Assembly (NCBI GenBank): GCA_016210045.1
Contig: JACQUX010000021.1
Coordinates: 36,125-100,124 of the forward strand
DNA: 64,000 nt
Source of the DNA: Deltaproteobacteria bacterium
GTDB lineage: Bacteria; UBA10199; GCA-002796325; JACPFF01
Reading direction: 5' to 3'
The position numbers and the translations under genes are program-made. Shown here one piece after another: positions 358-28,153 of the stretch. The notes beneath the pieces were generated by a model. It was not told the DNA's origin. It saw only the letters and a program-made list of their open reading frames with translations, and did no database searches. Position 1 is the first letter of the stretch. Each line of letters opens with the position of its first letter.

Positions 358-1050
358 ATGTCACTCCGCCCCGCCTTCATCCTCTTCACCCTCTACTCCC
401 TCCTCCTCCACACCCTCGCCCTCCATTTCGTATGGCAACAATTCGCTCCCCCACTCACCCCACCCCAACGCGTCGGCACTCCACACGACTCCAATGTCAT
501 CTTGGTAGATTTCATTCAGCCGAACGCAAGGACCATGGCGGCAAGTGAAGACGTAGGTTCAACACAACGGTCGGTCGGCGAGTCCCATCCGGGGGGACTT
601 GCGGAGCGCGCTGCATCCATGCGGATGAAACCGCAGCGCGCGAGCATGAGCGCGGCTTCGGCGCGTAAGCCGAAGCCGACGCGTGCCCCCCGGATGGGAC
701 TCGCCGACCGACCGTCCATGGTCGAGAATTTTCAAGAGCGACTCTCTGGAGAGACCGTACAAGGGGGCCATCAACCAACTGCCGACGCCACCCTCGCCCG
801 CATCTATGACCGCCTCGCCCGCGCGCGCCACTACCCGCCGCTCGCCCGCGCGCGCCGGCACGTCGGGAGTCCCGTCGTCCGTTTTCAAATTCAACCCGAT
901 GGTTCGATTGCCGACTTGAACTTACTCACGTCCTGCGGAATTCCGCTCCTCGATGACGCCGCCCTCCAAACCGTCCGCCGCGCCGCGCCCTTCCCCTACT
1001 TCCCCCGCCCCATCACCGTTCCGATCCAATACCGATTGAGCCCACAGTGA
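358..1050 (+). CDS. tonB: Energy transducer TonB family protein with an in-frame palindromic insert in its linker
   Basis: N-terminal TM helix; C-terminal TonB_C pattern (YPPLARARR..G..VVRFQIQPDGSI..LL.SCG.PLLD.AALQTVRRAAPFP..ITVPIQYRL). Confidence 0.85.
   Translation: MSLRPAFILFTLYSLLLHTLALHFVWQQFAPPLTPPQRVGTPHDSNVILVDFIQPNARTMAASEDVGSTQRSVGESHPGGLAERAASMRMKPQRASMSAASARKPKPTRAPRMGLADRPSMVENFQERLSGETVQGGHQPTADATLARIYDRLARARHYPPLARARRHVGSPVVRFQIQPDGSIADLNLLTSCGIPLLDDAALQTVRRAAPFPYFPRPITVPIQYRLSPQ
568..714 (+). repeat. Structured element family 1, copy 1 (29-bp perfect inverted arms around an 89-nt core with two hairpins), in-frame within tonB
   Basis: 568-596 CGGTCGGTCGGCGAGTCCCATCCGGGGGG is the exact reverse complement of 686-714; inner stems 607-614/633-640 and 655-662/669-676; length 147 nt = 49 codons. 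Confidence 0.9.
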
Positions 1051-1551
1051 ATCGAATTCGGCGACGGCCAGGTCGCCGCCGCCCGCACCGCCATCGACCA
1101 CGCCATCGAGATCGACCGCGCCCAAAGTCGACTATACCCTCATACGCAACTGTGGGCGGTGCGCATTGACATCGCCGCAGGGCGGTGGGCGGCGGCGGAG
1201 TCCCTCCTGCGAGCGCTCGATCGGCAGATGACCCAGGCGCGGCGGTTCTATCTCCCAGCGGTCGCGTGGTACGCCGTCGTGCTGCTGCACGAGACCGAAC
1301 TCGATGCGCTATCCACCCTCACCCAACAGCCGGCCTGGCCTGACCTCCCCGCGCGCTTCCGCGCGGCTATCGGGACCGCAGCCGGCGCAGCAGATGCCGC
1401 TCGGCGGTCCCTCGATCCGATCTATGCGGCACTCCGGGCGGACGCACGCGAGCTCGAGCAGATCCTCTTCGTCGGTCTCGCGGCCAAACGGGCCCGCGCG
1501 CGGGGCGCCATCGTCCGCAATCTCGGGTGGCGGATCGAGCGGCCGACGTGA
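1051..1551 (+). pseudogene. Start-less helical/TPR-like ORF remnant (or hypothetical protein from GTG 1159)
   Basis: Open frame begins immediately after the tonB TGA in the same frame with no upstream start or RBS; Ala-rich helical sequence. Confidence 0.4.
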
Positions 1552-1628
1552 ACCGGCGCTGAAGAGAAAACCATTTCCTGATCATGACGGCCTGGCAACA
1601 CCACTTGGAGCGGTCTCGAACTCGGCAG

Positions 1629-2801
1629 TCAGGATCGCACCGCAGGTAAGATCTCCCGCAAGAAGGTGCCGTAGGGCACGGCCAACGTGCCATCGGGGAA
1701 TCGCTCGCGATGCGTACCACCGTAGACGAGATACCGCTGGACCGGCTTATGCGCGATGTCGGCAAACGAGCGTAATCCGCCGAGGTCGCGCGCCGAAGTC
1801 TTGGATCCGGATTTACACTCGATCGCCAGGAGCGCCCTCCCGGTATCCAGCACCAAATCCACCTCCACGCCCGCTTCCGTGCGATACGCACTGGCCCGCC
1901 ACTCCCGGCGGTGTGCCCGCGCGTAACTCAGACATTGCAGAATGAACCACTGCTCGAACCGCGCCCCCCGTTCGACCGGGGTGACCGTGTGGCGGTGGAC
2001 ACCAAGAATAGCATTGCGCACGCCGAGATCAAAAAAAATGAAACGGTCGCGCTGCGACACGCGCCGTAACGACCATTTCGGCTGAAAAGAGGGGATCCGA
2101 TGCACGATGAGCGTATCCTCGAGAATGGAGAAAAAACGGCGAACCGTCTCTTTGGGGATTTCCCCGTCACTGGCGAGCTTCGAATAGTTGATCCACTGCC
2201 CACTGGCTTCGGCGGCGAGATCCAGAAACCGGGCGTACGTTCCCACGTCTTTGGTCAGGGCCTCGGCCTGGATCTCTTCGCGCAGATACACCGTGGCATA
2301 CGTGCCAAAAACAGCGTCTCCCTGTTCATGCTCGAGATCAATCCCCGGCAGCGTCCCGACCCGGAGCGCGCGGTCCAGGTCGAAGGCGTCTCCCAGCTCC
2401 CAGAAAGAGAGTGGGTCCAAATATTCCAAGAGGATGCGGCCAGGCAACAGATTGGCCCCACCCCGTTTTAATTTGCGTGCACTCGATCCCGTCAGCAGAA
2501 CGCGACGCGCGGGCGCTTCATCCAGCAGCGCTTGCACCGAATTTAGCAGCGCGGGGAGTCGCTGCACCTCATCGATGACCACCAATGCGGCGCGCGGCAC
2601 GGCCGCCACCCGGCGGCGCAGAAGGCCCGGATCCCGCGCATAACGCAGGAATTCTTCCTGATCCGCGAGGTTGATATTCAATGTCGGGTGCAGGCGATGG
2701 AGCAGCGTCGACTTGCCGACCTGCCTGGCGCCGAGCAACAGGACACTTTTCTTGCCACGCCGCAACCGCTCAAAGATTGCACGATCTATCATATGGGTCA
2801 T
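1629..2801 (-). CDS. AAA+ ATPase with DUF4143 C-terminal domain
   Basis: Walker A GARQVGKS, Walker B IDEVQ, TGSS motif, C-terminal EVDLV..AIECKS; start may be ATG 2792. Confidence 0.85.
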   Translation of the reverse strand: MTHMIDRAIFERLRRGKKSVLLLGARQVGKSTLLHRLHPTLNINLADQEEFLRYARDPGLLRRRVAAVPRAALVVIDEVQRLPALLNSVQALLDEAPARRVLLTGSSARKLKRGGANLLPGRILLEYLDPLSFWELGDAFDLDRALRVGTLPGIDLEHEQGDAVFGTYATVYLREEIQAEALTKDVGTYARFLDLAAEASGQWINYSKLASDGEIPKETVRRFFSILEDTLIVHRIPSFQPKWSLRRVSQRDRFIFFDLGVRNAILGVHRHTVTPVERGARFEQWFILQCLSYARAHRREWRASAYRTEAGVEVDLVLDTGRALLAIECKSGSKTSARDLGGLRSFADIAHKPVQRYLVYGGTHRERFPDGTLAVPYGTFLREILPAVRS

Positions 2802-2819
2802 TTACGTCCATAATGACCC
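2795..2819. promoter_or_regulatory. 8-bp inverted repeat over the AAA-DUF4143 start, possible operator
   Basis: GGGTCATT (2795-2802) ... AATGACCC (2812-2819). Confidence 0.35.
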
Positions 2820-3003
2820 ACTGTCAGGACGGCCGGAAATACCGCGCTGAGCACGACGTCGGCCGCCAGCCTCCTGATCACCACCGAGGCGCAGGTCTCA
2901 CGACCTTCGCCCCGGGTGATTTCCCAGCCCACCACCACACCATCAAAGACGAGCTGCGATTCATGTGGTTTGAAGGTTGATCGGGTGCACGCGCTGTGCA
3001 AAG

Positions 3004-3204
3004 ATGGCACAGATGCATTCACCACTCGCCACAAAACCTCCGCCGCCGCGGCTCACCGCACCGCAACGACTCGAACAAGCATTCAATCTCTTTTGGACGG
3101 CACGTGCGCTGAAAGAGGCGTGGTTGCGGCAAAGCCAACCCGAGGCGGGAGCAGCCGAGATTCAGCGGCAATTGCGCCGCTGGGTGTTATTCTCGCGGAG
3201 TTGA
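3004..3204 (+). CDS. Small hypothetical protein, putative partner/antitoxin of the downstream nucleotidyltransferase
   Basis: 66-aa helical ORF (MAQMHSPLAT...RRWVLFSRS) immediately upstream of the NTase gene on the same strand. Confidence 0.6.
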   Translation: MAQMHSPLATKPPPPRLTAPQRLEQAFNLFWTARALKEAWLRQSQPEAGAAEIQRQLRRWVLFSRS

Positions 3205-3229
3205 TGGCGCGTATTCCGTGGGCTCCCCG

Positions 3230-3796
3230 ATGCCGACCAACCTCCTGGCCCTCTTCACAACCCCACTCGAAACGGCGCGCATTCCCTATATGATCACGGG
3301 AAGCATGGCGGCGATTGTGTACGGCGACCCACGACTCACGCATGATGTCGATATCGTGCTCGCGCTGCGAACGGCCCAGCTACCCGCATTACTTGCGGCC
3401 TTCCCGCTCGTTGATTTCTACGCACCGCCTGAGGACACTGTGACCGCGGAGCTGGCACGGGGCCAGCGCGGCCACTTCAACATCATTCATCATGCCACAG
3501 GCTTTAAAGCGGACATGTATCTCGTTGGCCGAGACCCGATCCATCACTGGGCACTCTCGCGCACCACGACACTGACGGTGGGTACACAATCAGTACGAAT
3601 TGCGCCGCCGGAATATGTCATTATTCGCAAGTTGGAATTCTTTCGCGAAGGGGGGAGCGAAAAACATCTGCTCGACATTCGCAGTATGCTCGCCCACTCG
3701 CGTGCCCAGATTGATCAAGCCCTCCTCGATCAATGGATCGCACAGCGCGGCGTGCGGCCGCAATGGGACCAAGTGCTGATCGAAAAAACTCCCTAA
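3230..3796 (+). CDS. Pol-beta superfamily nucleotidyltransferase (AbiEii/DUF6036-like)
   Basis: Motif ITGSMAAIVYGDPRLTHDVDIV (GS...DxD) and later PEYVIIRKL...EKHLLDI. Confidence 0.75.
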   Translation: MPTNLLALFTTPLETARIPYMITGSMAAIVYGDPRLTHDVDIVLALRTAQLPALLAAFPLVDFYAPPEDTVTAELARGQRGHFNIIHHATGFKADMYLVGRDPIHHWALSRTTTLTVGTQSVRIAPPEYVIIRKLEFFREGGSEKHLLDIRSMLAHSRAQIDQALLDQWIAQRGVRPQWDQVLIEKTP

Positions 3797-3845
3797 CGAG
3801 CGCCCCGAGGGACAGCAACAAGTCATGCATTGAATAACGCGGGCC

Positions 3846-4172
3846 CTAACTCGCTTCCGATTCATCCAATCCCGGATCTTCCTTCATATCCGTCGGATCC
3901 AGCGGCACCAAGTCGGGCAGCGAACGGAATTCATCACGCGGATGCGCCGGCTGATACAACCGCAACGGCAACCCCGGCCGATCCGCCTGCAGCAGTAATT
4001 CATCACCCTCCAGCAGCTCGCCCTCCAGGGTCTCCGCCGACTCATCCGCCGCAGACCCTTCCGCCGCCAACACCTCGTCGTCTGCCACTTCCTGGACCGA
4101 CGCCTCCACTCCCGCACTACACAGCAACACGCTGAAACACCCCATCACGATGTACCAATTCAGCTTCACCAT
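3846..4172 (-). CDS. Secreted acidic hypothetical protein
   Basis: GGAGGT RBS before ATG 4172; signal peptide MVKLNWYIVMGCFSVLLCSAGVEA followed by an Asp/Glu-rich body. Confidence 0.6.
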   Translation of the reverse strand: MVKLNWYIVMGCFSVLLCSAGVEASVQEVADDEVLAAEGSAADESAETLEGELLEGDELLLQADRPGLPLRLYQPAHPRDEFRSLPDLVPLDPTDMKEDPGLDESEAS

Positions 4173-4311
4173 ACCCCACCTCCGTTCCATGTGCGGCCCC
4201 ATTATAGGCCCGACCTTCAGAAACGCCAGTGCTTTGTTCGCATAAAGTTGTATCCCTGACAACCCCATATTCGACGCAACCAAACGGAGAACCCGGGCCC
4301 GGTTGAGCAAC

Positions 4312-4461
4312 GGCCGGGAGGGCGTACCGGGGGCCGCAGGGGCTCTCGGAGCCGATTTCTCCTTGCGAAATCTAATGACAAAATCGGCGAGGGCGAGCGG
4401 CGACTCGCCTCGATGGCGAGTCGACCGCGTACCCTGCGGCCCCCGGTACGCCCTCCCGGCC
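4312..4461 (+). repeat. Structured element family 1, copy 2 (30-bp perfect arms around a 90-nt core), upstream of asnS
   Basis: 4312-4341 is the exact reverse complement of 4432-4461; core nearly identical to 27989-28078. Confidence 0.9.
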
Positions 4462-4531
4462 CCCCGAACGCAAGCACCGCAATGCACCACAACCCCTTGC
4501 ACTTCCCCCGCGAACCCGCTATCGGCGGCGC

Positions 4532-5827
4532 ATGAACGCCACCATCTTCGCCTCCCAACTCCCCGCCCATCTCGGACAAACCGTCACCCTCCGTGGCTGG
4601 GCCTACAACAAACGCTCTTCCGGAAAAATCCTCTTCCTCCAACTACGCGACGGCTCCGGCTTTACCCAAGTCGTGTACAACGCCGAGACCTTGCCCGCCG
4701 AGACCTGGCAGGCCATCGACACCTTGCCGCTCGAATCCTCCCTGACCTGCACCGGCACCGTCTCCAAACATCCGCGCCGTGAGGAGTATGAACTGCAAGG
4801 CACCGCCGCCCACGTCGTGCATCGCGCCGCCGAATATCCGATCGGCAAAAAAGAACACGGCCCTGATTTTCTGCTCGACCAACGCCATCTCTGGCTCCGC
4901 TCCCGCAAACAATGGGCGATCCAGCGCATCCGCGACACCGTCATCCAAGCCACGTTCGACCACCTCCACGCCCAAGGGTTCATCAAGATCGACACCCCGA
5001 TCTTCACCCCCACGGCCTGCGAAGGGACCACGACGCTCTTTGAAGTGCCCTACTTCGACCTCGGCAAGGCCTATCTGGCTCAGTCGGGCCAGCTCTATCT
5101 CGAAGCCGCGATCTTTGCACACGGGCGAGCCTTCGACTTCGGCCCGGTCTTCCGCGCGGAGAAGAGCAAGACGCGGCGCCACCTCACTGAGTTTTGGATG
5201 ATGGACGCCGAAGCGGCCTTCGTGGAGCACGACGAAAATTTGGCCATTCAAGAACAACTGGTCAGCGCCATCGTCCAAGCCGTCTTAATCAAACATCCAA
5301 CCGAGTTGGCGTTGCTCGAGCGCAATACGGATGCATTGGCGCGGGTCACACCACCGTTTTATCGGATCACACACGCCGCCGCGATCGACAAACTCCGCAC
5401 GCTCGGCTCCGACATCCAACCGAACGACGACCTCGGCGGCGACGACGAAACGTTGCTTTCGAATCAATTCGACAAACCGATCTTCGTGGAAAAATATCCC
5501 GCCCATGTCAAAGCGTTTTATATGAAGCGCGATCCGCAAGACCCAACCCGCGCGCTGTGCGCCGATCTGCTGGCTCCGGAAGGTTTCGGCGAAATCATCG
5601 GCGGCTCGCAACGCGAAGACGACTTCGACACGCTCCGCACCCGCATCGTGGAACACGGACTCTCGATCGAGCCGTTCCAATGGTATCTCGACTTGCGCCG
5701 CTACGGGAGCGTCCCGCACAGCGGCTTCGGTTACGGCCTGGAGCGGATTGTCGGCTGGCTCTGCGGCACCCCCCACGTCCGCGAAACCATCCCCTTCCCC
5801 CGCATGCTGCACCGCCTGACGCCGTAA
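4532..5827 (+). CDS. asnS: Asparagine--tRNA ligase
   Basis: OB-fold N-terminus (LRGWAYNKRSSGKILFLQLRDGSG), motif 2 FRAEKSKTRRHLTEFWM, IIGGSQRE, motif 3 YGSVPHSGFGYGLER. Confidence 0.97.
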   Translation: MNATIFASQLPAHLGQTVTLRGWAYNKRSSGKILFLQLRDGSGFTQVVYNAETLPAETWQAIDTLPLESSLTCTGTVSKHPRREEYELQGTAAHVVHRAAEYPIGKKEHGPDFLLDQRHLWLRSRKQWAIQRIRDTVIQATFDHLHAQGFIKIDTPIFTPTACEGTTTLFEVPYFDLGKAYLAQSGQLYLEAAIFAHGRAFDFGPVFRAEKSKTRRHLTEFWMMDAEAAFVEHDENLAIQEQLVSAIVQAVLIKHPTELALLERNTDALARVTPPFYRITHAAAIDKLRTLGSDIQPNDDLGGDDETLLSNQFDKPIFVEKYPAHVKAFYMKRDPQDPTRALCADLLAPEGFGEIIGGSQREDDFDTLRTRIVEHGLSIEPFQWYLDLRRYGSVPHSGFGYGLERIVGWLCGTPHVRETIPFPRMLHRLTP

Positions 5828-5836
5828 CCACTCGTC

Positions 5837-6256
5837 TCACACTTCGAGGATCCGACACGGCACATGCTCGGCAATGAGACGGAAATCGCGATGGTTCGCA
5901 GTCCATAATTCGGATCCAAGACGGGCCGCGCTCAGGGCAATGAGTACATCGTTCACAAGCCGCACCTTGCGGATCGTTTCGAAACCGTGCTGCATCCCAA
6001 TCGCGGCCAATACCTTGCCACAGCGGATCCATTCCTGTTCGTTGGGCACCACGACACGCTCGTGCTCTGCAAACGTTTCATGCAGCGCATCGAGCAGTTG
6101 CGTCGTCCGCCGGTCAACGGCGCCTGCGAGGAGTTCTTGAAGCACAACTGCACTCAAGTACAAGATGGCGTTTGGGGATTGGAGCAATGGGAGAGGCGCG
6201 GTGCCATTCCGCAGCCACGGGATATAGACCGATGTATCCAACAGGACTTTAGCCAC
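5837..6256 (-). CDS. vapC: PIN-domain VapC-type toxin
   Basis: VLLDTSVYI, SAVVLQEL and NDVLIALSA..LWTANHRDF motifs; GTG start overlaps the antitoxin stop. Confidence 0.85.
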   Translation of the reverse strand: MAKVLLDTSVYIPWLRNGTAPLPLLQSPNAILYLSAVVLQELLAGAVDRRTTQLLDALHETFAEHERVVVPNEQEWIRCGKVLAAIGMQHGFETIRKVRLVNDVLIALSAARLGSELWTANHRDFRLIAEHVPCRILEV

Positions 6257-6452
6257 GCTGCGTACTCTGGTCCATATCCTCGAGTCGACACCGCCCCATA
6301 ATCCGCCGATGCCCATCCGCAATCGCGGCATTCGCGATCACCAGGTTCAAGGCCGCCTCCACCGCAGCGGTATCCGTGTCAACTTGGAGAATCCGCCGCA
6401 CTTGGCGAATCTTCGCGGCCTCGAGAATAAACTGTTTGCGCACCTTTGCCAT
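6249..6452 (-). CDS. vapB: VapB-type antitoxin
   Basis: 67 aa with GGAGGT RBS, upstream of and overlapping the PIN gene; TDTAAVEAAL pattern. Confidence 0.75.
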   Translation of the reverse strand: MAKVRKQFILEAAKIRQVRRILQVDTDTAAVEAALNLVIANAAIADGHRRIMGRCRLEDMDQSTQRG

Positions 6453-6460
6453 ACCACCTC

Positions 6461-6499
6461 CATGTGTGTATATAATTACATATCATACACACATGTCAA
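6461..6499 (-). promoter_or_regulatory. vapBC promoter/operator: 11-bp inverted repeat plus TTGACA
   Basis: CATGTGTGTAT (6461-6471) / ATACACACATG (6485-6495); TTGACA on the minus strand at 6499-6494. Confidence 0.65.
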
Positions 6500-7470
6500 C
6501 ATATGATTCGGCACAGTCCCATTTGCTGCAACCACGCGACGGTTCGCTGCGCGGTCTCGGGAAACGGGCGAAAGACCATCCCCAGCTCGCGGCAGGCCTT
6601 GGTGTTGGAATAATAAAAATACGCCGTCGCCGCGCGCGCCATCACGGGCGTCAGCGTCGGGCGACGGCCGAACACACGCGCCACGACGGCGATCGCTCCA
6701 GCCCCGAGGCGAATCAGCCACCCAGGCAACGTGACGAACGGACCGCGCCGTCCGAGGCATTGCGCGAAAATCCGGCCGACCGCACGATACGGGAGATTTT
6801 CCGCCGTTAGAATGTAACGCTCGCCGGACCGCCCCCGTTGCCAAGCCCGCAGCATGCCTTCGACCACGTCATCCACATCGACGACCGACATCCCGCCCGG
6901 CGCACTGACCCAACTGACCAGCCCACGCACATACGCCGCACGCCGCCGATCCCCCGGGCCATAAATCGTGCCCGGATTGACCATCACCGCATCGAGGCCA
7001 TTGGCCACAGCGGCACGCACGATCTCTTCCGCCGCCCGCTTCGATTCGGCGTAATTGTTGCGCAACGGTCCCGCATTGTACGGACACGTCTCATCGACCG
7101 GAACGCCATCGGGGGCATAGCCGACCGCCGCCACGGAGCTGACATGCACTAATCGCCGCACCCCGTGCCGCACACAGGCCGCGACGACATGTCGTGTCCC
7201 CTCGATGTTAGTGGCATTTTGCTCCGCGTTGCGGTCATCCCAATATTGAATGAGCGCAGCGGAATGGAAAACGGTTGCACACCCCGCCACCGCACGATCA
7301 ACCGCTGCCGCATCGGTCAAATCGCCGATCACTTCTTCAACCGGTGCACCGCACAGCGCGTCCATTGGCGCCGCGGCACGCCGCAAGATACGGACGGGCT
7401 GCCCGTCGGCGCACAGTCGCCGTACTAAGGCCGAGCCCAGAAATCCGGTAGCACCCGTCACGAGAATCAC
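6496..7470 (-). CDS. NAD-dependent epimerase/dehydratase (extended SDR, HpnA/dihydroflavonol reductase-like)
   Basis: ILVTGATGFLG, HVSS and YAESKRAAE (YxxxK) motifs; GTG start overlaps the rocD TGA. Confidence 0.9.
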   Translation of the reverse strand: MILVTGATGFLGSALVRRLCADGQPVRILRRAAAPMDALCGAPVEEVIGDLTDAAAVDRAVAGCATVFHSAALIQYWDDRNAEQNATNIEGTRHVVAACVRHGVRRLVHVSSVAAVGYAPDGVPVDETCPYNAGPLRNNYAESKRAAEEIVRAAVANGLDAVMVNPGTIYGPGDRRRAAYVRGLVSWVSAPGGMSVVDVDDVVEGMLRAWQRGRSGERYILTAENLPYRAVGRIFAQCLGRRGPFVTLPGWLIRLGAGAIAVVARVFGRRPTLTPVMARAATAYFYYSNTKACRELGMVFRPFPETAQRTVAWLQQMGLCRIIC

Positions 7471-8672: not shown

Positions 8673-8895
8673 AAATTCTCCTTAAAGGTTGTGATCAGAT
8701 GCGCGCGCTTCTGCTATAACTCTGACGTCGAGTCAATCCCGATCCCAATCAAATCTCATGGCACCACTCTGTCTGACAACGATCATATGATGCGGTGAGA
8801 TTGATCAACGCCCTTTTGCGGATGCCGTGGCACGGTTCAATCAGCAGTGCGAATTCCTTTGCGGTGATACCGCAATATGCTATGCGCGGAACGTC

Positions 8896-9597: not shown

Positions 9598-9617
9598 GCA
9601 ATACCATCTATATCAGC

Positions 9618-9658: not shown

Positions 9659-9664
9659 GGGCCT

Positions 9665-12571: not shown

Positions 12572-13714
12572 ATGGATCACACCGCACGGCTGATTGTCGA
12601 CAGTCCAAATCACGATCCGGATTTATTTTATGCCTGCCATTTTTCTGCGGGAGATCCGGTGATCTTCCTTGAACATCGACGGCGCAAATATCTCCTGCTC
12701 AGCGACTTGGAATTGGATCGGGCACGTCAAGAAGCTACCGTCGACGAGGTCCTTTCCATCTCGACAGTTGTCGAGGCAAAAAATGGTGTACGCCGCGCTG
12801 CGCGACGGCTGGGAGGACGTGCCGGGATCGTCCAGGTGTTTTGTCATGCGCATCGCATTAAGCGGCTCTTAGTGCCGGAAACGATGAGCGTCGGAGTCGT
12901 CGATGCACTGCGTACCGTCGGCCTCCGGATCGACGTCGCGGCGCTGCCGTTTTACCCACAGCGATTTTTTAAGACCCCTGGAGAATTGCGGGCAATGAAA
13001 ATCGCACAGCGAGCCACGTTCGCCGCAATGTCCCTCGCAGAACAAATGCTGCGCGACAGCATAATCGATCGCAATCAACTGGTGTGGCAAGGAAAGCCGC
13101 TCACGAGCGAACGGATGCGAGCCGAATTGAGCACGTTCTTGTCTCACCAAGGATTTTCCTGTCCGGAAGGGATGATAATTGCGTGCGGTCCCCACACGAT
13201 TGAACCGCATAACCACGGCAGTGGACCGTTGCGTCCCCATCAAGCCATCATCGTCGACATTTATCCGCGCTCCCTCACAACACGCTTCTTCGGCGACGCG
13301 ACACGCACGTTTTGTCGCGGCACGGCGCCGGACGCATTGAAGCAGCTCTATTCTACGGTGAAAACCGCGCAAGTCGCAGCGCTGCGCCAAGTGCGCGCCG
13401 GGGTGAACGGGCAACGCGTGCACGGCGACATCGTGAAGCGGTTTGAAGCGGCGGGCTATGCCACGAAGGAAATGAACGGGCGCCGCCAAGGGTTCATCCA
13501 CGGGACCGGGCACGGACTCGGCTATGCGGTGCACGAAGAGCCGTTGCGGATCAATCGGCTCCCGTGCCGACTCCGTACGGGACACGTCGTGACGGTCGAA
13601 CCAGGGTTGTATTATGAAGGGATCGGCGGCGTCCGGATCGAGGATGTCGTCGTAGTCACGCCGAGCGGCGCGGACTTGTTGGCCCGCTATCCGAAACGTT
13701 TGGAAATTTTATAA
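12572..13714 (+). CDS. M24 family Xaa-Pro aminopeptidase
   Basis: PH..G, IIVDIYPR, FFGDATRT, HGTGHGLG..VHE, TVEPGLY, GGVRIED metal-binding motifs. Confidence 0.92.
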   Translation: MDHTARLIVDSPNHDPDLFYACHFSAGDPVIFLEHRRRKYLLLSDLELDRARQEATVDEVLSISTVVEAKNGVRRAARRLGGRAGIVQVFCHAHRIKRLLVPETMSVGVVDALRTVGLRIDVAALPFYPQRFFKTPGELRAMKIAQRATFAAMSLAEQMLRDSIIDRNQLVWQGKPLTSERMRAELSTFLSHQGFSCPEGMIIACGPHTIEPHNHGSGPLRPHQAIIVDIYPRSLTTRFFGDATRTFCRGTAPDALKQLYSTVKTAQVAALRQVRAGVNGQRVHGDIVKRFEAAGYATKEMNGRRQGFIHGTGHGLGYAVHEEPLRINRLPCRLRTGHVVTVEPGLYYEGIGGVRIEDVVVVTPSGADLLARYPKRLEIL

Positions 13715-14455
13715 TCCGTTCAACACGGCTTGCCGTTTCGCGCGATACTCGCTCTCATTCAGCAATTTCCGCTTGTACAGTTTCTCGATTTCTTCCAGCC
13801 GCTCGGTCATGGATTCCGGCTGACGGTGTTGCTCGTTGCCGCTCGCCACATAGGTGGCCTTCGTGTCGAGGATCACTTCCGCCGCGTTGCTGGCACCCAA
13901 TACCTGGCCGGGACCCGCTTGAAGCGTAATCCGCAAACTCTTCGCCCGCGCCAACGCCTTGTCGGCATAGCCGCGCTTGTCGAGATCGCCGACGACTTTG
14001 GCGAATAATTTCTGAAATTCGACGTGCAGCTCCGTCCCCTGCATCCATACGCGCCCGGTCGAAAAACGATCGTTGCCGAACACACGCTTCGGATCGCCGT
14101 GCAGGTAAGAAAAATACACGGCCTGTTGCGGCGTCGCGCGCCGTAACCCTTCCGCGAGATACGCCGACAAATAGTCGACCGCCGTGTCATCGAAGATTCG
14201 CAGATCGGTCAATTTATTCTTAATCAACGAGCGCCGAGTCATTTGCAGCGAGGTCAGCATTTCCCGCATCTTGTCGACCGCCACGACGGCCGGGTGGGTC
14301 GGCTGCAAGGCCGCTTGATCTTTGGCATCGAGCGCTTCGAGCTTGACGTAATCGAGCCGTCGATTGGTATGGATATAATTCGAATCGGCGTGGGTCGCAG
14401 ACACAGCGCCCAGCCATAAACCACTCATCACCGCCAGCATGAACAATCGACGCAT
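13709..14455 (-). CDS. Secreted hypothetical protein with a C-terminal SHOCT-like domain
   Basis: Signal peptide; C-terminal ERLEEIEKLYKRKLLNESEYRAKRQAVL. Confidence 0.75.
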   Translation of the reverse strand: MRRLFMLAVMSGLWLGAVSATHADSNYIHTNRRLDYVKLEALDAKDQAALQPTHPAVVAVDKMREMLTSLQMTRRSLIKNKLTDLRIFDDTAVDYLSAYLAEGLRRATPQQAVYFSYLHGDPKRVFGNDRFSTGRVWMQGTELHVEFQKLFAKVVGDLDKRGYADKALARAKSLRITLQAGPGQVLGASNAAEVILDTKATYVASGNEQHRQPESMTERLEEIEKLYKRKLLNESEYRAKRQAVLNGL

Positions 14456-17043: not shown

Positions 17044-17328
17044 ATGAGCTCGATATGTTTCGAGTGGGATGAACGGAAAAATCGAGAGAATATGCGCAAA
17101 CACCGCGTCTCATTCGAAGAGGCACGAACGGTGTTTCTCGATGAACAGGCCATCCGTTATTTTGACCCGGATCATTCCGCAGATGAAGATCGCTTCATTA
17201 TGTTGGGACTCAGTTATCAATTGCGGGTGTTGGTCGTCTGTCACTGCTATCGCACGAGCGAAACGACGATTCGGATCATTTCGGCTCGCAAGGCCGACCA
17301 ACAGGAACGCACGGCCTACAGGAGATAA
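17044..17328 (+). CDS. brnT: BrnT family toxin
   Basis: FEWDERKNREN.RKH.VSFEEA..VF.D..HS..EDRF...IRIISARKA. Confidence 0.9.
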   Translation: MSSICFEWDERKNRENMRKHRVSFEEARTVFLDEQAIRYFDPDHSADEDRFIMLGLSYQLRVLVVCHCYRTSETTIRIISARKADQQERTAYRR

Positions 17329-17332
17329 ATGT

Positions 17333-17548
17333 ATGCGCACTCATTATGATTTCTCCACGATGAAAGGCATCCGAAACCCGTATAGCAAAGATTTGAAGCA
17401 GCCGATCACGATTCGTTTGGATAAAAACACGGTTTCTTATTTCAAGACGTTGGCAACCACGCTGGGCATGTCGTATCAACATCTCATCAATCTGTATCTA
17501 CGGGATTGTGCCGTCTCCCACAAAAAGTTGGCCTTACGATGGGAATGA
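17333..17548 (+). CDS. brnA: BrnA family antitoxin
   Basis: HYDFSTMKG.RNPY...KQPITIRLD...YFK.LA...G.SYQ.LINLYLRDC. Confidence 0.85.
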   Translation: MRTHYDFSTMKGIRNPYSKDLKQPITIRLDKNTVSYFKTLATTLGMSYQHLINLYLRDCAVSHKKLALRWE

Positions 17549-19340: not shown

Positions 19341-19402
19341 GGTACGAATAGGATACCCGATCCACGGTCCGCTGCAAAGTCTGCGCGGTGAACCGACCCC
19401 GT

Positions 19403-20263: not shown

Positions 20264-20374
20264 TCGCGTTCGCCCCACCAGAGGTCGCTGCATCCCATCG
20301 TGTCATTCTTACTGCAATGGCGCGACCTCATCCATGGCAAATGTCAGGCATCGCAAAAACAAGCTATGCACGGT

Positions 20375-21334: not shown

Positions 21335-21483
21335 CGCCGGCTCCGGGCATGGCCTTCATGCGCAGTCAAACTCGCTTCCACTACGGTCGTTATCGGCTCA
21401 GATGAAAAAAAGTTGCGCCGCAAAATAACACGCAACTTCTTCGACACCAGGCCGATATACAGAACCCAACGAGGAGGATGCTC

Positions 21484-24400
21484 ATGAGCGTGATTCGGAC
21501 GATGCAGCGACAGGCGGCACGGCAGTCTGCGCAACGGCGGCAATTGGGGCTCGCACCGCGAGGCAAGCAACGCAGTCGCACGCCGGGCACGACGGTCTAT
21601 TCCGGGGCATTGGGGTTTTCCAACGGCACGTATGGCCTCGGGAACGGCCGCGCCGCGTTGCAATTTCGCTCGACGGCACCGGTAACGGCGTCTCGAACTT
21701 CCGGCCTGCATGGTCGCGGGATTTACAACGTCGGCGCTGCGGCGTTTGCACTGTTTACAGCCTCCAGTGTCGTACTGTCGGCCGTTGCGCAGGCGGATGA
21801 ATACGAAGGCAGTCGCCCGGACTTCACTCCCGGCCAACATGTCTATTTCGTGCCCGACGGATATCAGGGCGCATTCACCAGTGAGCATGGCGGAATTTCA
21901 ATCCTCTCCGCCGACTTCTTTAGCGGACAAACGCACTTTCCGTTTTACGTCGTCATCTTTACATAGCGTCGGCGGACTGGTCCGCGACGCGGACACCACC
22001 AACGACGCGGGGTGGGAAGTCGCCAAGCAGTGGCAAACCGATCCGCGGTTCGACGCGCGCCGCGCCACCGTGATCGCGCTCTCGATGGTGGAACGATCGG
22101 TCGCGATTCAGCCGGCCGCGATGTGGCAAGAGGGGCTGGGGCTGAAAGGCGACGCGCTCACGGCGCTTGCGCAGCAGGTCTTCATTCCCTACGCAAAGAG
22201 TGGCCGCTTCGCCGACGGACTCAAGGCGTTAGTGGACGACTTGAATCAGCGCTACCGATTGGCCGTGTCGGCAGCGCAGGCCCAACTGCGAGACGCGTTA
22301 CACGCCGCCACGACGGTCATCCCCAATGTTCCGGCCGGCGCCGATACGACGGCACTGCTAAGCGCGATCGAGCGCGCCATGCCCGCCTTGAGCAGCAATG
22401 ATTTAGAGCAATTGCGGCAAGCCTATGCTGAACTGACACGTCCACTCACGGCACTCCGCGAACTCGTCGTTGAAATAGCCACGCTGCAGGGCCGGATCAA
22501 GGCCGCGATGGAACAGGGCGACCGTTTGTTGGTGGCACACCAGACTGATCTCGCCCCAGTGGCGCCAGCCTACCACACGGCTCGAGAACACGCATCGAAG
22601 CTCACCGCAAATAGTGACCACCGCAGGCTCCAAATCGGGGCCAAGGCCATTGAAGAGACCAAGCAGGCGATGGAATCCCACATGGCGCGTTGGAACGCGG
22701 CGCGGGACCGGCTGCAACGGGCGTTGCAAGATGCCAAGGCAAATGACACACCATACAAAAACGTTTTCTTCCCCAACGCCCTCGCCCCACTCAACGCCGC
22801 CCTCACAGCGGCGGACGCCCTCGATCCGAAGGATCTCGAAGCGCATGAGCGCGTGGCTCGTGAGATCGAGAGCGCGCAACGGCCATTACAAGCATACATG
22901 GCCGAGCTGGATCGATTGCGAGAGGCATTGCAGCAGCGAGCCGCAACCGCGGCCGAACTGCTCCAAGAACACCGAGACTTGCTGACCACGACCGACACCG
23001 CGACTGCCCAGGCCGCGATCGACAAGGCCCGGCATGTGGCGTTGGAAACCGGCGTGAATGAGATGGAGACGGCATTGGCAGAATTGGATCGAACGACGGC
23101 GGCGCTGCAAGACCGCATCAGCGAATTATGGCGGCAGCAGCATATTCGCCGGCTTGCCATCGCCGGCGGCGTTTTCGCCAGTCTGGCGCTGTTGCTCGGC
23201 AGTCTCATCTACGGCCTGCGGCGACAACGACGTTATCGGCGAGGCCTCGAATGGCTGATGCGAAATTTGCAAGCCTTGGCGGATAAGAACAGCGCCGCGT
23301 ATCAACAGATGCTCGCGCTGATTCAAAAACGGGATGCGGCCCAAGTCACCGCATTGCACGACTTGACTGGCGAACGGACGCGCGGCCTGTTGGCCGACGT
23401 CTCGCAGCAGATCGTCACGATCTTCGGCGGACTGGAAGCACTGGAGGCGCGCGTGGCGGAATGCCGCGGGATCGTCTCTGCGGCACCGTATACAAAACGA
23501 CTCCCGGCCGTCGAACGCGCGGCGGCCCGGCTGCTGGAACCGTTGTCGTTCCAGCGCGAAACCGTGCGCGCCACGCAAGGGCTCTTCGCCGTCGCTGCGG
23601 ACACCGTCACGGTCGAAGCAATCGAGATGGACGTCTTTCAGCGCGGGCTGGAAACCACCTACGAGAGCGCGCAGCAGGCGTGGGCCAAGATCGAACTGGC
23701 AATCGATGCCCTACAGCGCGATCCACGCGTGGACTTTCCGCCGACCGGGTTGCAACAGTTACGCGCGCAACTCGTCGCCGCGCAGATCCCACTGGCGTGG
23801 CTGGACCAACATCCGTTGACCCAACCGGAACGGACGTGGGCGGAATTGGACACGTTGAAGCAACGCGATCCGGTGGCCTACTTAGAGCAATTGCAGGCCT
23901 ACCAGGCCCAACACGCCGCGTTCGCCGCCCGCATCGCAGCGATCATCGAAGACGTGCAGGCCGCGCGCGCGGCGAAAGTGCAGTGCGACGCGATTGCAAT
24001 CGACTACGCGCAAACAGCCGTGAGCGGGACGCTGGATCCGCGCGAGGCCGAGCGAGCCGCGACCGAAACACTCCGAGCCGTGGATGACATGCTGAACGCC
24101 GCAACCGGCAATGAACAAGATGTGGATCGCGCCTGCGATGCGGTCGTCACTGCATACGCCGAAGCGCAAGGTCGCAAGGAACGGTTGCGCGCGGTGATGG
24201 CCAGCATCAGCGGAGAACTGGCGAACGTGCGAGGGACGCTGGCACACCTCGAAGGAGAAATCGGACGCACGGCAAGTGAGGCCGCAGCGCTCAGCACCGA
24301 ACACGCCGCGCGCGCGATGGAGGCTGTGAACACCCCACTCGCCGAGGCGCGCGAAGACTACGCCGAGGGGAATGAGGCCAGCACGATGGCCACGCGGTGT

Positions 24401-25357
24401 CTGGCAGAGCGCGATCACTTCGGCGCGGCCGCGATGGCCCGACGCATCGCGGATGAATGTACGGAGATCACGGAAGACTTGGCGCGCGCCCGCGCAGCGA
24501 TGCAGGCATTGCGGCAGGCCAAACAAGACGCCACGGCGACGATCGCGCGTGCCACGGCGCGGATCGAGGAAATCGCCACGGCACAAGCGCGAAGCAGCGA
24601 GACGGTCGCGGAGATGCGCGGGGAGTTCGGCGGCAGCGATATGACGGACGCCCAGCGCGAAGCAAAAGACGCAGACGTGGACTTGAATGAAGCGCGCACG
24701 GCGCTGGCCGGCGCGCGCGAGCAAGTTGAGCAGCGCGAATATGTCACCGCATTGCGGAACGCAAATTTGGCGCTGAAAGAATGCGCCGAGGCGGCCGAGG
24801 ACCAAGCCGACGCTGGCCGCTACGTCCAACAATTGCGCGATGCCGCCGCGGAATACGCACGGCGACGCGCAGCGTTGGAGGGCCTGCGCTGCGGCCATGC
24901 CGGCACCGTCGGCGGATACAGCCTGAGCGTCGGTTCATACCTCGACACTGGCGACGGGCTGTTTTCACGGCTCCAAACGCCGAGCGGCACGGTGGATTGG
25001 GTCGCGCAGTTGGCACTCGTCCACGCGGTAGAAAAGAGTTGGACACAAGGCATCGCCAGGGCCAAGGAGGATTACGACGCCGAACAGCGACGGATTGCCG
25101 AAGCACGGGCCGAGGAAGAACGGCGGCGCCGACGCGAGCGGGAACGTCGCGAGCTCGAGGCCGCCGAGGCCAGCGCGGCCGCGGCCCGAGCCGCAGCGGC
25201 CTTATTCCGCAGCAGCCAACGATCGAGATCATCATCGTCATCTTCGATCTTCGGAGGCGGCGGCGGCCATCGTGGGGGCGGAGGTGGCTTCCACTTCGGT
25301 GGGGGTGGTGGCGGTGGCGGCGGAAGTCGCGGCGGCGGCGGCGGCGCGAGCTGGTAG
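21484..25357 (+). pseudogene. TPM-domain, TM, long coiled-coil, Gly-rich-tail protein (~1290 aa) split by a +1 frameshift near 21960
   Basis: Frame 1 gives signal-like ..VLSAVAQA|DE and ..FYVVIFT* (TAG 21964-21966); frame 2 continues HSVGGL..AKQW..VIALSMVERSVAI..IPYAKSGRFADGL (TPM-like) to a GGGG-rich end. Confidence 0.7.
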
Positions 25358-25394
25358 ATAGAAGCATCACTGGTGGCTAGTGATTGGCAATAAC

Positions 25395-25465
25395 CATCGC
25401 AGGGGGACAGGTACCGTCAAATGCCTGCCAAATGGGCATCGCACGGTACCTGTCCCCCTGCGATG
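25395..25465. repeat. 23-bp perfect inverted repeat; terminator-like or REP-like
   Basis: CATCGCAGGGGGACAGGTACCGT (25395-25417) / ACGGTACCTGTCCCCCTGCGATG (25443-25465); inner ATGCC/GGCAT stem. Confidence 0.8.
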
Positions 25466-25562
25466 CATATGCGCATGAGTCGGCGGACTAGTACGGCGCA
25501 ACTTCCTCCGCGAACTGCCGATACATATGTAGGGGTATCGGGGTTGGGGGGAGTCGCGTACT

Positions 25563-27065
25563 ATGGCCAAATCCATTTCCAATAGACCAGGAGTCGGGGG
25601 ACAGCTGCCGTCCAGGGTCCGGCAACAGCCGATCATACGGCGCTCGGCGTACCCGGTCGTTCCCGCAGCACTCCACGCACGCGCCGTGGGACCTGGGCGG
25701 TCATTGGTCCCCGCAGCACACGGGGAACCGCGCCGCGGCTGGCGCTCCCTGTTCGGCCCTGTCGGGCGCTTGGTCGCGCGCCTCTGGGGCGGCGGCAAGC
25801 CGCCACCGATCGATCCGGTCCAGCTCCTCATGCGCAGCATTACAATGATGGATCAACGCGATCCCGACCGTCCATTCGTGCAACTCGCGTTGGCCGACGA
25901 CACGATGGCCGCACTCGCCAGCGCGCGCCCGGCCTTCAGCCTGACGTTTCAACGGGCGGAGGGCGTCCGCGTGCCGTTCCAAGTGACTACCAGCGGAACT
26001 GACGGATTTGTTGTCGCGCTCCATGGCCAGAATGCGCTCTTTTCCCGCACCGGCACCGTGGCGCTCGATTATCGAGACGGCGCATGGACGCTGGTGAACA
26101 GCGGCGACGGCGAACTGACGCTGGAAGGCAACGCGATGGAGAACGCATCGGTAACAACGCTCGCGTCCAAGGCGTCTCATCCCCTGTCACCGCTCGGTGG
26201 CACCGTGACCGTCCGGATGGGCGGTTATACATTGCTTCGCTTCACGTATCCGCGGGCGGAGGCCGATGACCAGTTCGAACCAAGAACTTTCTCGATCGGC
26301 ATCGATGGCGTCGAGTCCGCCCGCCAAGCCCGCCTCGCGGCGCGCGCCGCACCCCACGAACTATCGCCCGACCCGGCACACGGCATCGTCGCCGGCCTGT
26401 TGACTGCGGCCGGAGATGATCCGCCAGCCGCCCGAAGACACGAAATCTCGCTCGCAGAACCCGCAGAACTGGCAGACGACTTTGGCGTCGCCATTGCCGA
26501 CTTGCCCACGATTCCGGACCGGATCCTCGCGCTGCGCCGGGAGACATTTCGGCTTGAGGCCGAGGCGGCTCTCCATCGACTTCATTACAGTCGTTACGGC
26601 TTCAGTAGGCAAATGACCTCCATCCACCGTCTTCTCCCGCTACTCACGCACTGGGCGCGCCGCGACCAGGACTTCTCGCTATTGGAACTCGTCTTGACCC
26701 AACAGCGCGACCACGCCAGATACGGCACCGTCGATGAAGATTTCTTCCCTGATTGGCTGGCCCGCTTGTTACAAGCCAGTCGTGATCGGGCCACACAACG
26801 TTGGGATGAAGCGGGGATCAAGATCGCCGCGTCCGGCATGACGTATGCGGACTTCCGTTGGACGGACGCGATCCCGCCTCGATTGGCTCCGTACACTGCG
26901 GCAGAACAAGCACGGATCCTCGCACATGTGGCCCAGCGCGAATGGCGCGACCAGGAGAATACCCGAGCCGGCGCGCTCACTGCGATGCTCCTTTACGCCA
27001 GCGGCGAGCGTAGCCGCGCCTCGGCCATCGCGATCCGCACGCTGGCGCACGTGCGGCGGGAGTGA
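25563..27065 (+). CDS. Hypothetical protein with a degenerate FHA-like segment
   Basis: 500-aa ORF with GGGGAG RBS; FSRTGTVAL..DGAWTLVN..G.LTLEG....TVRMGGY.LLRF resembles the FHA beta-sandwich pattern. Confidence 0.6.
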   Translation: MAKSISNRPGVGGQLPSRVRQQPIIRRSAYPVVPAALHARAVGPGRSLVPAAHGEPRRGWRSLFGPVGRLVARLWGGGKPPPIDPVQLLMRSITMMDQRDPDRPFVQLALADDTMAALASARPAFSLTFQRAEGVRVPFQVTTSGTDGFVVALHGQNALFSRTGTVALDYRDGAWTLVNSGDGELTLEGNAMENASVTTLASKASHPLSPLGGTVTVRMGGYTLLRFTYPRAEADDQFEPRTFSIGIDGVESARQARLAARAAPHELSPDPAHGIVAGLLTAAGDDPPAARRHEISLAEPAELADDFGVAIADLPTIPDRILALRRETFRLEAEAALHRLHYSRYGFSRQMTSIHRLLPLLTHWARRDQDFSLLELVLTQQRDHARYGTVDEDFFPDWLARLLQASRDRATQRWDEAGIKIAASGMTYADFRWTDAIPPRLAPYTAAEQARILAHVAQREWRDQENTRAGALTAMLLYASGERSRASAIAIRTLAHVRRE

Positions 27066-27076
27066 CGGGGAAAAGC

Positions 27077-27171
27077 GGTGGCTGGTGACTGGGGGACAGC
27101 CCGCACGACACACTTTGTTCCCAATCCCCAGCCACCAGTCACGAGTCACCAGCCACCAGTCACCAGTCACG
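27077..27171. repeat. Heptamer AG(C/T)CAC(C/G) tandem repeats forming a terminator-like hairpin
   Basis: Six units at 27130-27171; two inverted units at 27077-27090. Confidence 0.8.
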
Positions 27172-27276
27172 GCTTTCCCCAACCACCTTTCTATTGACTT
27201 GCCGCGCCCTTTCAACGAAGCAAACGCCCTGGGAGGGGAGTGCTTAAGTGCTTAAGCGCTTGAGTACGGACATCAC

Positions 27277-27609
27277 ATGGATAGTGAATTGACCGACACA
27301 CCGACAAGTCACGGCAGTGCGCCGACACCGCCGACGGCGGCGGGCATCAGTGGGCGCGCGATGGCGGCGTTGGTGCTGGGACTCCTCGCGCTGATTCCGT
27401 GCTGCCTGTTCTTCACCGGCATTCCGGCGATTATCGTCGGACAACTCGAACTCGCGGCCATCGACAACGGCGCCGCGCCGACCGCCGGACGGGCCATTGC
27501 GAAGACCGGCCTCGTCTTCGGCGTCATCGGCTCGGCACTCGGCCTGCTGCTCGTGCTCGGCTGGTTCTTCGCCGTGGGCTTAGGCTTCATGGCAAAAATG
27601 GTGCACTGA
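27277..27609 (+). CDS. DUF4190-like small membrane protein
   Basis: AMAALVLGLLA..C..TGIPAIIVG...L..I......G...AKTGL..G.IG. Confidence 0.8.
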   Translation: MDSELTDTPTSHGSAPTPPTAAGISGRAMAALVLGLLALIPCCLFFTGIPAIIVGQLELAAIDNGAAPTAGRAIAKTGLVFGVIGSALGLLLVLGWFFAVGLGFMAKMVH

Positions 27610-27633
27610 ATGCCGCTGTCCTCTCCATTTGGG

Positions 27634-27718
27634 GAGGCTAAGGGCGCAGCGGCCTATGCCGCTGCATGGCCCGCAGCAGCGGTTATAGCAATGCGACGAG
27701 CAGGAGCATTGCTCACCA
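27634..27718 (+). repeat. Structured element family 2, copy C (85 bp)
   Basis: Colinear with the other two copies; perfect stems CAGCGGC/GCCGCTG and GCAATGC/GCATTGC. Confidence 0.8.
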
Positions 27719-27742
27719 TTGCAGTTGGGTGAGGGGGAGTGT

Positions 27743-28153
27743 TAGGGCGTGTTTGTAAAATTGATACGGCAATGCAGGATTTTCCATCACGCAGTGGCGC
27801 GCGTTCGATACGAGGGCCGGGCGGAGGGGGCAGACAGGCCACCGAACATCGAAATCGATTTTGCAAACACGCCCTACCGAACGTAGCCGATCTGATGACA
27901 AGAGAACAACTCACGAAAACATTCCACTGTTACAAGCAATCTGGCCCTCATACTACCGGCGACGGTGCGGGTGGGGTATCTCCCAGGGGCTCTCGGAGCC
28001 GATTTCTCCATGCGTCTGTGAATGACGAAATCGGCGAGGGTGAGCGGCGCTGCGCCTCGATGGCGCAGCGACCGCGTACCCTGGGAGATACCCCACCCGC
28101 ACCGTCGCCCCCGGACGCAATACACACCGAAATTATTTTGCAAACACACCCTA
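27743..28153. mobile_element. MITE-like region with three copies of a ~20-bp terminal-inverted-repeat-like sequence
   Basis: TAGGGCGTGTTTGTAAAATTGAT at 27743 (+); inverted copies ATCGATTTTGCAAACACGCCCTA (27854-27876) and ATTTTGCAAACACACCCTA (28135-28153); no transposase in the window. Confidence 0.5.
27958..28109 (+). repeat. Structured element family 1, copy 3 (31-bp perfect arms around a 90-nt core), upstream of rsmD
   Basis: 27958-27988 is the exact reverse complement of 28079-28109; core shares GGGCTCTCGGAGCCGATTTCTCC and AAATCGGCGAGGG.GAGCGGCG...CGACCGCGTACCCT with copy 2. Confidence 0.9.

Follow-up and report, generated by a model that had tools for sequence, protein, structure and literature searches.

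A family of hairpin elements with a conserved three-way-junction core and copy-specific outer stems in a deltaproteobacterial genome

Known palindromic repeats of bacteria, such as the REP, MITE and RPE (Rickettsia palindromic element) sequences, are recognised by their conserved ends. RPEs insert in frame in genes, and the stem of Correia elements is a substrate of RNase III (PMC10969869). The arms of inverted repeats can also be corrected and expanded by template switching, single events having lengthened them from 7 to 25 bp in one case and from 9 to 24 bp in another (PMC13100816). Here we describe a family of hairpin elements with a conserved core and private stems, represented by three copies in a 64,000-nucleotide stretch of contig JACQUX010000021.1 of a Deltaproteobacteria bacterium (positions 36,125–100,124, forward strand; hereafter the window) and by a fourth member in a distant uncultured relative. 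A family built in this way escapes repeat finders, and its conserved-core design contradicts the usual model of a transposase that reads the termini.

The consensus fold is a three-way junction formed by a long outer stem (P1) and two hairpins, P2 and P3. P2 consists of a 6-bp lower helix (P2a), an invariant GGA bulge, an upper helix of 8–9 bp (P2b) and a loop of 18–22 nt, and P3 has 13 bp with a bulged A; the invariant features of the core are CGGAG (which holds the GGA bulge), CGA(G), GAGCG, the bulged A and a closing GU. An initial annotation of the window had reported three elements with perfect stems around an 89–90-nt core, and all three are confirmed, with coordinates that were accurate to within 1 nt. 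Their parts are as follows.

567–715 (+): copy 1, whole element, 149 nt, placed in frame within tonB, in the linker that joins the membrane anchor to the C-terminal domain
567–596 (+): copy 1, 5' arm, 30 nt, pairing perfectly with 686–715
597–685 (+): copy 1, core, 89 nt between the arms, with CGGAG at 601–605, P2b at 606–614/633–641, a P2 loop with AUCCAUGCGGAUGAAACC, CGAG at 641–644, GAGCG at 648–652, P3 at 650–662/669–682 with bulged A679, and GUG at 683–685
686–715 (+): copy 1, 3' arm, 30 nt
4312–4461 (+): copy 2, whole element, 150 nt, with the asnS start codon (4532) 70 nt downstream
4312–4341 (+): copy 2, 5' arm, 30 nt, the outer 25 nt copy-specific and the inner CAGGG common to copy 3
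4342–4431 (+): copy 2, core, 90 nt between the arms, with P2a at 4342–4347/4389–4394, the GGA bulge at 4348–4350, P2b at 4351–4358/4381–4388, the loop at 4359–4380, GA of the P2–P3 junction (J2/3) at 4395–4396, P3 at 4397–4409/4415–4428 with bulged A4424, and GUA of the P3–P1 junction (J3/1) at 4429–4431
4432–4461 (+): copy 2, 3' arm, 30 nt
27958–28109 (+): copy 3, whole element, 152 nt, with the rsmD start codon (28164) 54 nt downstream
27958–27988 (+): copy 3, 5' arm, 31 nt
27989–28078 (+): copy 3, core, 90 nt between the arms
28079–28109 (+): copy 3, 3' arm, 31 nt

By repeat finder the arm pairs of all three copies are 100% complementary, and the copies fold at about −122 to −124 kcal/mol with z scores of −12 to −14 relative to dinucleotide shuffles (for copy 1, a minimum free energy of −124.3 kcal/mol and z of −13.9); the opposite strands fold almost equally well. 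An exhaustive scan for perfect inverted repeats of at least 13 bp with spacers of 3–170 nt returns only 8 in the 64 kb, with 0–1 in composition-preserving shuffles, and the longest after the three copies is 23 bp. Inverted repeats of at least 20 bp with no more than one mismatch and a 40–160-nt spacer number three in the window, compared with five in 930 kb of unrelated GC-rich loci. The arms were described initially as differing between copies, and this is borne out: no 12-mer of the arms recurs elsewhere in the window or between the arms of different copies, and the outer 25 bp of copies 2 and 3 agree at chance level (9/25 identities). From CAGGG to CCCTG, a span of 100 nt, the same two copies differ at about 15 positions (~85% identity), and their cores are ~83% identical (15/90 positions differ); the differences include three consecutive compensated pair changes in distal P3 and the middle of the P2 loop.

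The junction string quoted in the initial annotation has three matches in the window against none expected. It was, however, drawn from these same copies, and an independent covariance model (R1) was therefore built from copies 2 and 3 only and run over the window with filters off. R1 recovers the left-out copy 1 with 83.1 bits on the plus strand versus 47.9 on the minus strand, the copies used to build it scoring 176 (copy 2) and 174 bits (copy 3). Beyond these it returns only generic hairpins over the 64 kb, so that the window holds exactly three copies, all on the plus strand. In a model-guided alignment of the three, 98.2% of the cells are paired and 35 of 55 pairs change on both sides, and the paired fraction falls to ~40% in slid controls. 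Within P1, P2b and P3 of the window copies all 153 cells are Watson–Crick (91/91 in P1), with no G·U or mismatch and no pair changed on one side only. The initial description also holds for the covarying second hairpin, with its GCG(G)/(C)CGC base and bulged A.

The covariance modelling that the initial annotation had proposed also extends the family beyond the window. A second model (R2), built from copies 1–3 and run on loci fetched around AsnS homologues, finds a fourth member, L136e, at 1892–2034 on the minus strand of L136, a metagenome scaffold in the European Nucleotide Archive (ENA) with 46% GC; the AsnS encoded there and that of the window share 70% identity. The match scores 67.8 bits (E about 1e-11) with none on the reverse strand; nothing comparable occurs in ~220 kb from other relatives, and in 750 kb of unrelated GC-rich control loci R2 reports one generic hairpin only, with a similar score on both strands. 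The sequences CUCGGAG, CGAG and GAGCGG are all kept in L136e, together with the bulged A, the closing GU and, apart from one C:G to G:C swap, the upper P2 helix. The lower P2 helix shows covariation (CGUCUC/GAGACG versus GCUCUC/GAGGGC), the P3 stem is wholly different (CUUUUUGGG/CCCAAAAAG), and the arms of L136e are 26 bp long, AT-rich (38–42% GC), unrelated to those of the other copies and perfect save for one T·G. Once L136e is included, the pairs that change on both sides number 45 of 55, 98% of the cells are paired and only the last P1 pair is invariant. The claim that fold and junctions are conserved while the stems vary is thus supported.

L136e lies antisense within a called gene of 780 amino acids, and the reading frame is open throughout the element. 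The ATG of this gene overlaps the stop codon of the preceding TonB-dependent receptor gene, and the protein begins MKMVRTRR-[element]-LFLSCFVFSCQ, which reads as a signal peptide of lipoprotein type, the insert lying in its predicted n-region. A second assembly has the same N-terminus, and the insertion is present in every cluster mate of the L136 gene. The four members occupy unrelated contexts, including two in-frame intragenic copies in opposite orientations.

The lower part of P2 is compatible with a kink-turn in copies 2 and 3 (GCUC-UCG-GA-GCC / GGC-GA-GGGC) and in L136e (CGUC-UCG-GA-GGC / GCC-GA-GACG), copy 1 having no C-stem that would match; the segment is described equally well as a simple 6-bp helix interrupted by the GGA bulge.

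Copy 1 is hosted by the following reading frame.

358–1050 (+): tonB, 230 amino acids, with an N-terminal anchor and a C-terminal TonB_C domain (PF03544)

On our reading, the anchor carries an S-x3-H signature. The 230-amino-acid frame is also on public record, and the public gene call (619–1050, 143 amino acids) begins at an ATG within copy 1, after the GGAG of the element; copy 1 thus misleads gene finders and truncates the annotated TonB. The gene downstream of copy 3 encodes RsmD (PF03602). The AsnS encoded downstream of copy 2 has no match closer than 73% identity among 5.8 billion proteins, showing that this uncultivated lineage is poorly sampled. Four relatives fetched by their AsnS, two of which keep the FecCD-ABC-TonB...AsnS synteny, have only 8–93 nt upstream of asnS, too short for the element. 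It is absent from these orthologous sites and is not a conserved asnS leader. The copies had been described as sense to tonB, asnS and rsmD; all three do lie on the plus strand like these genes, but copy 1 is inside the tonB frame and does not adjoin it. A role as a cis-regulatory RNA of these three genes is not supported, given that position, the antisense, in-frame position of the fourth member and the short asnS leaders.

No named family accounts for the elements. Rfam 15 has no match at its gathering threshold over the 64 kb, and around each copy there is nothing element-specific at E<10, only miRNA-type hairpin noise far below threshold; the initial view that this is not a named family is therefore upheld for Rfam 15. 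A ribozyme, also suggested initially, is not supported: no ribozyme model of Rfam matches even at E<10, and the hammerhead and other ribozymes were rejected on this ground. An intrinsic terminator was likewise set aside, with no model match and a small GGCUC/GAGCC hairpin that is not kept in copy 1. Plasmid and phage collections gave no match, nor did the literal sequence strings in the literature. Viral contigs gave three chance matches to looser patterns and none to a P2-module pattern, a strict 31-position pattern has no match in the JGI metagenomes, and a six-frame peptide profile of the core finds nothing at E<=10 among 5.8 billion proteins. A loose junction pattern was run against 185,579 genomes, and among the matches listed there are chance occurrences in GC-rich genomes; the only one of these with a flanking stem, L008, is an unrelated imperfect palindrome of 67 nt. 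The family has no name, and conservation of the core alone sets it apart from all defined families.

One look-alike deserves separate description. In another relative, L124:13343–13490(−) is a 148-nt hairpin with the same architecture as the window elements, and a metagenome scan with a 21-mer from it finds two further copies, L131 and L134. All three lie within a repeated, heavily structured non-coding unit of ~430 nt (L124:13333–13769(−), L131:2940–3361 and L134:2618–3052) that occurs in three different contexts in one metagenome, with compensatory changes in several helices, an 80-nt block that is 100% identical, no conserved open reading frame (ORF) and no Rfam match. The unit is a candidate large non-coding RNA or composite mobile element that ends in a window-like hairpin. 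Divergence is ~3% in its core, ~17% in the arms and ~35–40% in the adjacent spacer. The arms in L134 have four clustered changes, each fully compensated; those in L131 have one uncompensated A·C and one G·T, and a T·G wobble is common to all three. Their membership in the window family is unproven: they score 46–47 bits, no higher than the generic hairpin L090 (52/45 bits on its two strands), with a pairwise z of ~2.7. L128:2463–2626 was set aside likewise. The L124 family is an architectural parallel only, and it shows that long arms in this lineage change fast yet stay paired and can travel with an element. In addition, a 336-nt spacer in a relative's FecCD/ABC operon (L127:7780–8120) is filled with GC-rich hairpin repeats (GGAGCCTCCCCCTC..CGCGGTGCG..) of a private family.

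Short motifs complementary to the conserved P2-loop motif UCC[AU]UGCG lie near the window copies.

520–534 (+): flank motif CCGAACGCAAGGACC, 33 nt before copy 1
4464–4478 (+): flank motif CCGAACGCAAGCACC, 27 nt beyond the point where the conserved core of copy 2 ends
28111–28120 (+): flank motif with one mismatch, CCGGACGCAA, 27 nt beyond the point where the conserved core of copy 3 ends

A guide–target system in which the P2 loop would pair with these motifs is suggestive in the window (p ~0.04) but was rejected, with the motif on the opposite, wrong side in copy 1 compared with copies 2 and 3 and absent at L136e.

The reading that we favour, though only tentatively, is that these are small, non-coding, dispersed palindromic elements of the MITE or RPE kind in which only the core is inherited and one arm is templated from the other. 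The heritable part would be the core of ~90–100 nt alone, with two hairpins of any sequence that pairs, and the outer stem would be specific to each locus, templated between its arms at the DNA level. The most likely process would be intrastrand template switching by a replicating polymerase on a hairpin, in which the short closing stem of the element would serve as seed and the local flank would be converted to a perfect arm of 25–30 bp. Insertions would survive where they are tolerated, in intergenic DNA or in frame in flexible protein segments.

Several observations point this way. The 153 Watson–Crick cells without a G·U argue for templating of DNA rather than compensation at the RNA level. 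Perfect arms beside a core divergence of 15–17% argue that the arms arose more recently than the core lineage or undergo active correction. Four unrelated sites, two of them in frame (one sense, one antisense), and the lack of the element at orthologous sites indicate a dispersed insertion-type element and not a gene-specific regulator. Template switching is length-neutral, which suits the in-frame copies. Arm composition tracks the locus, being AT-rich in the 46%-GC L136 and GC-rich in the window, and in copies 2, 3 and L136e the C>G bias of both flanks recurs in the 3' arm, the 5' arm being the odd one; this composition hints that the 3' arm was the template. We infer from these features that the element is mobile and that its arms originated by template switching. 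The initial interpretation thus stands in part. Its fold, its unnamed family and its mechanism copying one arm from the other are retained, the last as the best fit to Watson–Crick stems, the lack of one-sided changes in P1, P2b and P3 and the sharp boundary of the arms; the gene-specific regulatory RNA and the ribozyme are not.

A number of points count against local templating or against mobility. Arm lengths are nearly constant (30, 30, 31 and 26 bp), where haphazard growth after insertion predicts more spread, and the window arms, with 72–88% GC against 43–65% in their flanks, are no simple copies of average flanking DNA; template switching predicts neither constant arm length nor GC-rich arms. 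No copy with short or absent arms occurs in ~360 kb, and the arms of L124, L131 and L134 are one shared sequence that travels with the element. Only four members are known, and purifying selection on a functional RNA could instead explain why the cores of copies 2 and 3 are ~83% identical. A Pfam scan of the 39 window ORFs reveals no transposase, RAYT, integrase or reverse transcriptase. There is no direct repeat of at least 3 nt at the copy ends (AGGTTCAACACA/CCATGGTCGAGA, CGGTTGAGCAAC/CCCCGAACGCAA and CTCATACTACC/CCCGGACGCAAT), and hence no target-site duplication. No empty site was found, and the TonB linkers of three orthologues are unalignable, too divergent to delimit the insertion.

The competing view with most to be said for it, a serious rival that we nonetheless consider unlikely, is that the element is a functional structured RNA, either a small RNA of its own or a module of mRNAs. 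The three-way junction would be the active part, and the long perfect stem would serve, whatever its sequence, as a stalk for processing or stability, such as a target of RNase III of the kind seen in rRNA processing stems or Correia hairpins. The copies would then be old paralogues whose arms drifted to saturation with pairing kept while the core stayed under purifying selection. The junction nucleotides are indeed invariant over two organisms whose AsnS proteins are 70% identical, every helix covaries, and in three of the four members the GGA bulge with its UC..GA flanks is kink-turn-compatible. The rare wobbles are G·U on the element strand (U·G in P2a of copies 2 and 3, T·G in the L136e arm), a constant arm length is natural if the arms are inherited, and the L124 arms have diverged by ~17% with full compensation, beside 3% in the core and ~35–40% in the spacer. 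Correia inverted-repeat hairpins in mRNAs, moreover, are cut by RNase III (PMC10969869). The helices of the window copies nevertheless speak against this view, with no G·U or mismatch in their 153 cells, and a 30-bp stem is hard for selection to keep free of single mismatches. RNA families normally show one-sided pair changes. Here P1 alone is saturated, and its rate of variation exceeds that of the element's remaining stems more than 10-fold. Two of the four copies lie in reading frames, one of them antisense, where the host mRNA would be damaged by a hairpin of 26–30 bp or by a site for RNase III; Rfam has no match even at E<10, and no promoter or terminator belonging to the element itself was detected. 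Less probable again, in our estimate, is that the element builds its own hairpin on insertion, a core of ~100 nt being transposed through a hairpin or fold-back intermediate whose fixed ruler copies ~25 nt of target, inverted, across the core. The result would be an inverted target-site duplication, with the junction as the single-stranded recognition site of a putative enzyme, and insertion could possibly be guided by pairing of the P2 loop (UCC[AU]UGCG) with the flank motif (CGCA[AU]GGA-like) 27 nt away. Such a ruler would account for arms that extend 25–26 bp beyond the shared inner stem in all members, for their perfection and sharp boundary and for a 3' arm with the composition of the flanks, and the flank motif, which in copies 2 and 3 stands exactly 27 nt from where the core ends, could mark a target site set by measurement. 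In copy 1, however, that motif lies on the opposite flank, and L136e lacks it; the window arms are far more GC-rich than their flanks, no empty site was found, and no candidate enzyme gene lies nearby; to our knowledge no transposition chemistry makes an inverted target duplication around a core. For the origin of the arms we accordingly place local templating first, an inherited functional RNA second and an insertion chemistry third.

Two further alternatives seem to us very improbable. The core might insert into the loop or centre of long, locus-specific palindromes that already exist, in the way that IS1397-type elements enter REP hairpins. Several mobile elements are known to target hairpins on single-stranded DNA, and the genome does have other long perfect hairpins, such as the 23-bp stem at 25395–25465, but this is the only other perfect palindrome of at least 20 bp in the 64 kb, and two of the four copies lie in coding sequence, where a pre-existing perfect palindrome of 50–60 bp is very unlikely. 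The weakest candidate, by a narrow margin, is a REP/REPIN or IS200/IS605-type element moved in trans by an HUH enzyme (RAYT or TnpA) that reads the inner hairpins and junction as single-stranded DNA; as an engine of dispersal it would be compatible with locally templated arms. HUH enzymes read small conserved hairpins with short single-stranded motifs, and compensatory changes are common in REPIN hairpins (PMC3116915). All window copies also point the same way, on a strand whose GC skew is negative throughout. Against such an enzyme, the Pfam scan finds no RAYT or TnpA_Y1 in the window, the layout is the inverse of a REPIN, there is no GTAG-type head, and two copies are intragenic.

Other features were noted around the copies and elsewhere in the window. 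Upstream of copy 2, positions 2802–4311 (~1.5 kb) hold ORFs without a Pfam match, between an AAA_14/DUF4143 gene (1629–2801, −) and copy 2/asnS; the same two genes are 93 nt apart in L124, so that this segment looks like an acquired insertion. Around copy 3 a 19-nt motif, ATTTTGCAAACACGCCCTA, occurs three times, at 27743–27761(−), 27858–27876(+) and 28135–28153(+), the last ending 10 nt before the rsmD start codon. It is also present in L124 (~13757–13776 and ~13282–13300) and L128 (~2665–2680), adjoins start codons in distant relatives, and may serve across the lineage as a promoter or leader signal. Copy 3 also lies between the two halves of an imperfect direct repeat of 28 nt (27849–27878 and 28127–28156). 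The 23-bp perfect hairpin at 25395–25465 (CATCGCAGGGGGACAGGTACCGT...), the sole other long perfect palindrome (at least 20 bp) of the window, has a 25-nt structured loop and lies just after a 1215-amino-acid ORF (21710–25357), and a hairpin of short CCAGTCACC-like repeats at 27068–27180, after ORF 25563–27065, scores as a generic hairpin on both strands. Genes of toxin–antitoxin type include one for a PIN-domain protein beside asnS (5837–6331, −), a ParE/RHH pair just downstream of rsmD (28724–29005, −, and 29007–29249, −) and one for a BrnA-like antitoxin (17069–17548, +). Two giant proteins of 4593 (40647–54428, +) and 1869 amino acids (54865–60474, +) have a C-terminal domain associated with the type IX secretion system (T9SS) and thrombospondin type-3 repeats, which are Asp-rich and calcium-binding and make up nearly all direct repeats of the window.

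The elements show that hairpin DNA of 140–150 nt can be absorbed in frame by a TonB linker and by a signal peptide, and the covariance model provides a handle for annotating the family and correcting gene calls. If the arms are locally templated, the copies would document in nature how template switching builds palindromes in bacteria, or would record a new insertion chemistry; if the core is a functional RNA, they would represent an unnamed class of structured RNA in a barely sampled bacterial lineage.

Among the described systems, each shares some features with the present family and departs from it in others. MITEs are likewise small, non-coding and present in several copies, as are the three elements of 149–152 nt in 64 kb and the fourth in another organism, and Correia elements (CREE) in particular are ~150 bp long with a long terminal stem (~26 bp), often lie just upstream of genes and are co-transcribed with them. 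The terminal repeats of MITEs, however, are conserved, match those of a parent insertion sequence and are flanked by direct target duplications, whereas here the arms are private and there is no duplication. REPINs and BIMEs are also long hairpins of inverted halves with compensatory changes, and a single-stranded DNA intermediate has been proposed for REPINs (PMC3116915), but REPINs have invariant ends around a variable spacer, the reverse of the conserved centre and variable ends seen here, and they are extragenic and accompanied by a RAYT, where two of our four copies are intragenic and the window has no RAYT. Integron attC sites are defined by their fold, with arms that differ yet pair, and act as folded single strands; they conserve their outer ends (RYYYAAC/GTTRRRY) and extrahelical bases while the centre varies, and none of these features is present in our copies, which end in ACGG../..CCGT, GGCC../..GGCC and GGCG../..CGCC on stems without bulges, in a window where the Pfam scan detects no integrase or cassette array. 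Quasipalindrome correction by template switching (Ripley; Lovett; PMC13100816) yields perfect, locus-specific arms of ~24–25 bp from a short seed, replacing one flank by an inverted copy of the other without a change in length, so that frames are preserved; it is a mutational process and not an element family, and has not been described as the regular companion of a dispersed repeat. RPEs are the closest match in behaviour. They too are palindromic, ~100–150 bp long and non-coding, are found in intergenic DNA or in reading frames to which they add a peptide segment, and have neither a classical inverted-repeat and duplication signature nor a known transposase. Compared by description, the copies of an RPE family align over their full length, stems included, in hosts of a different lineage and base composition, whereas the copies described here align in their core only.

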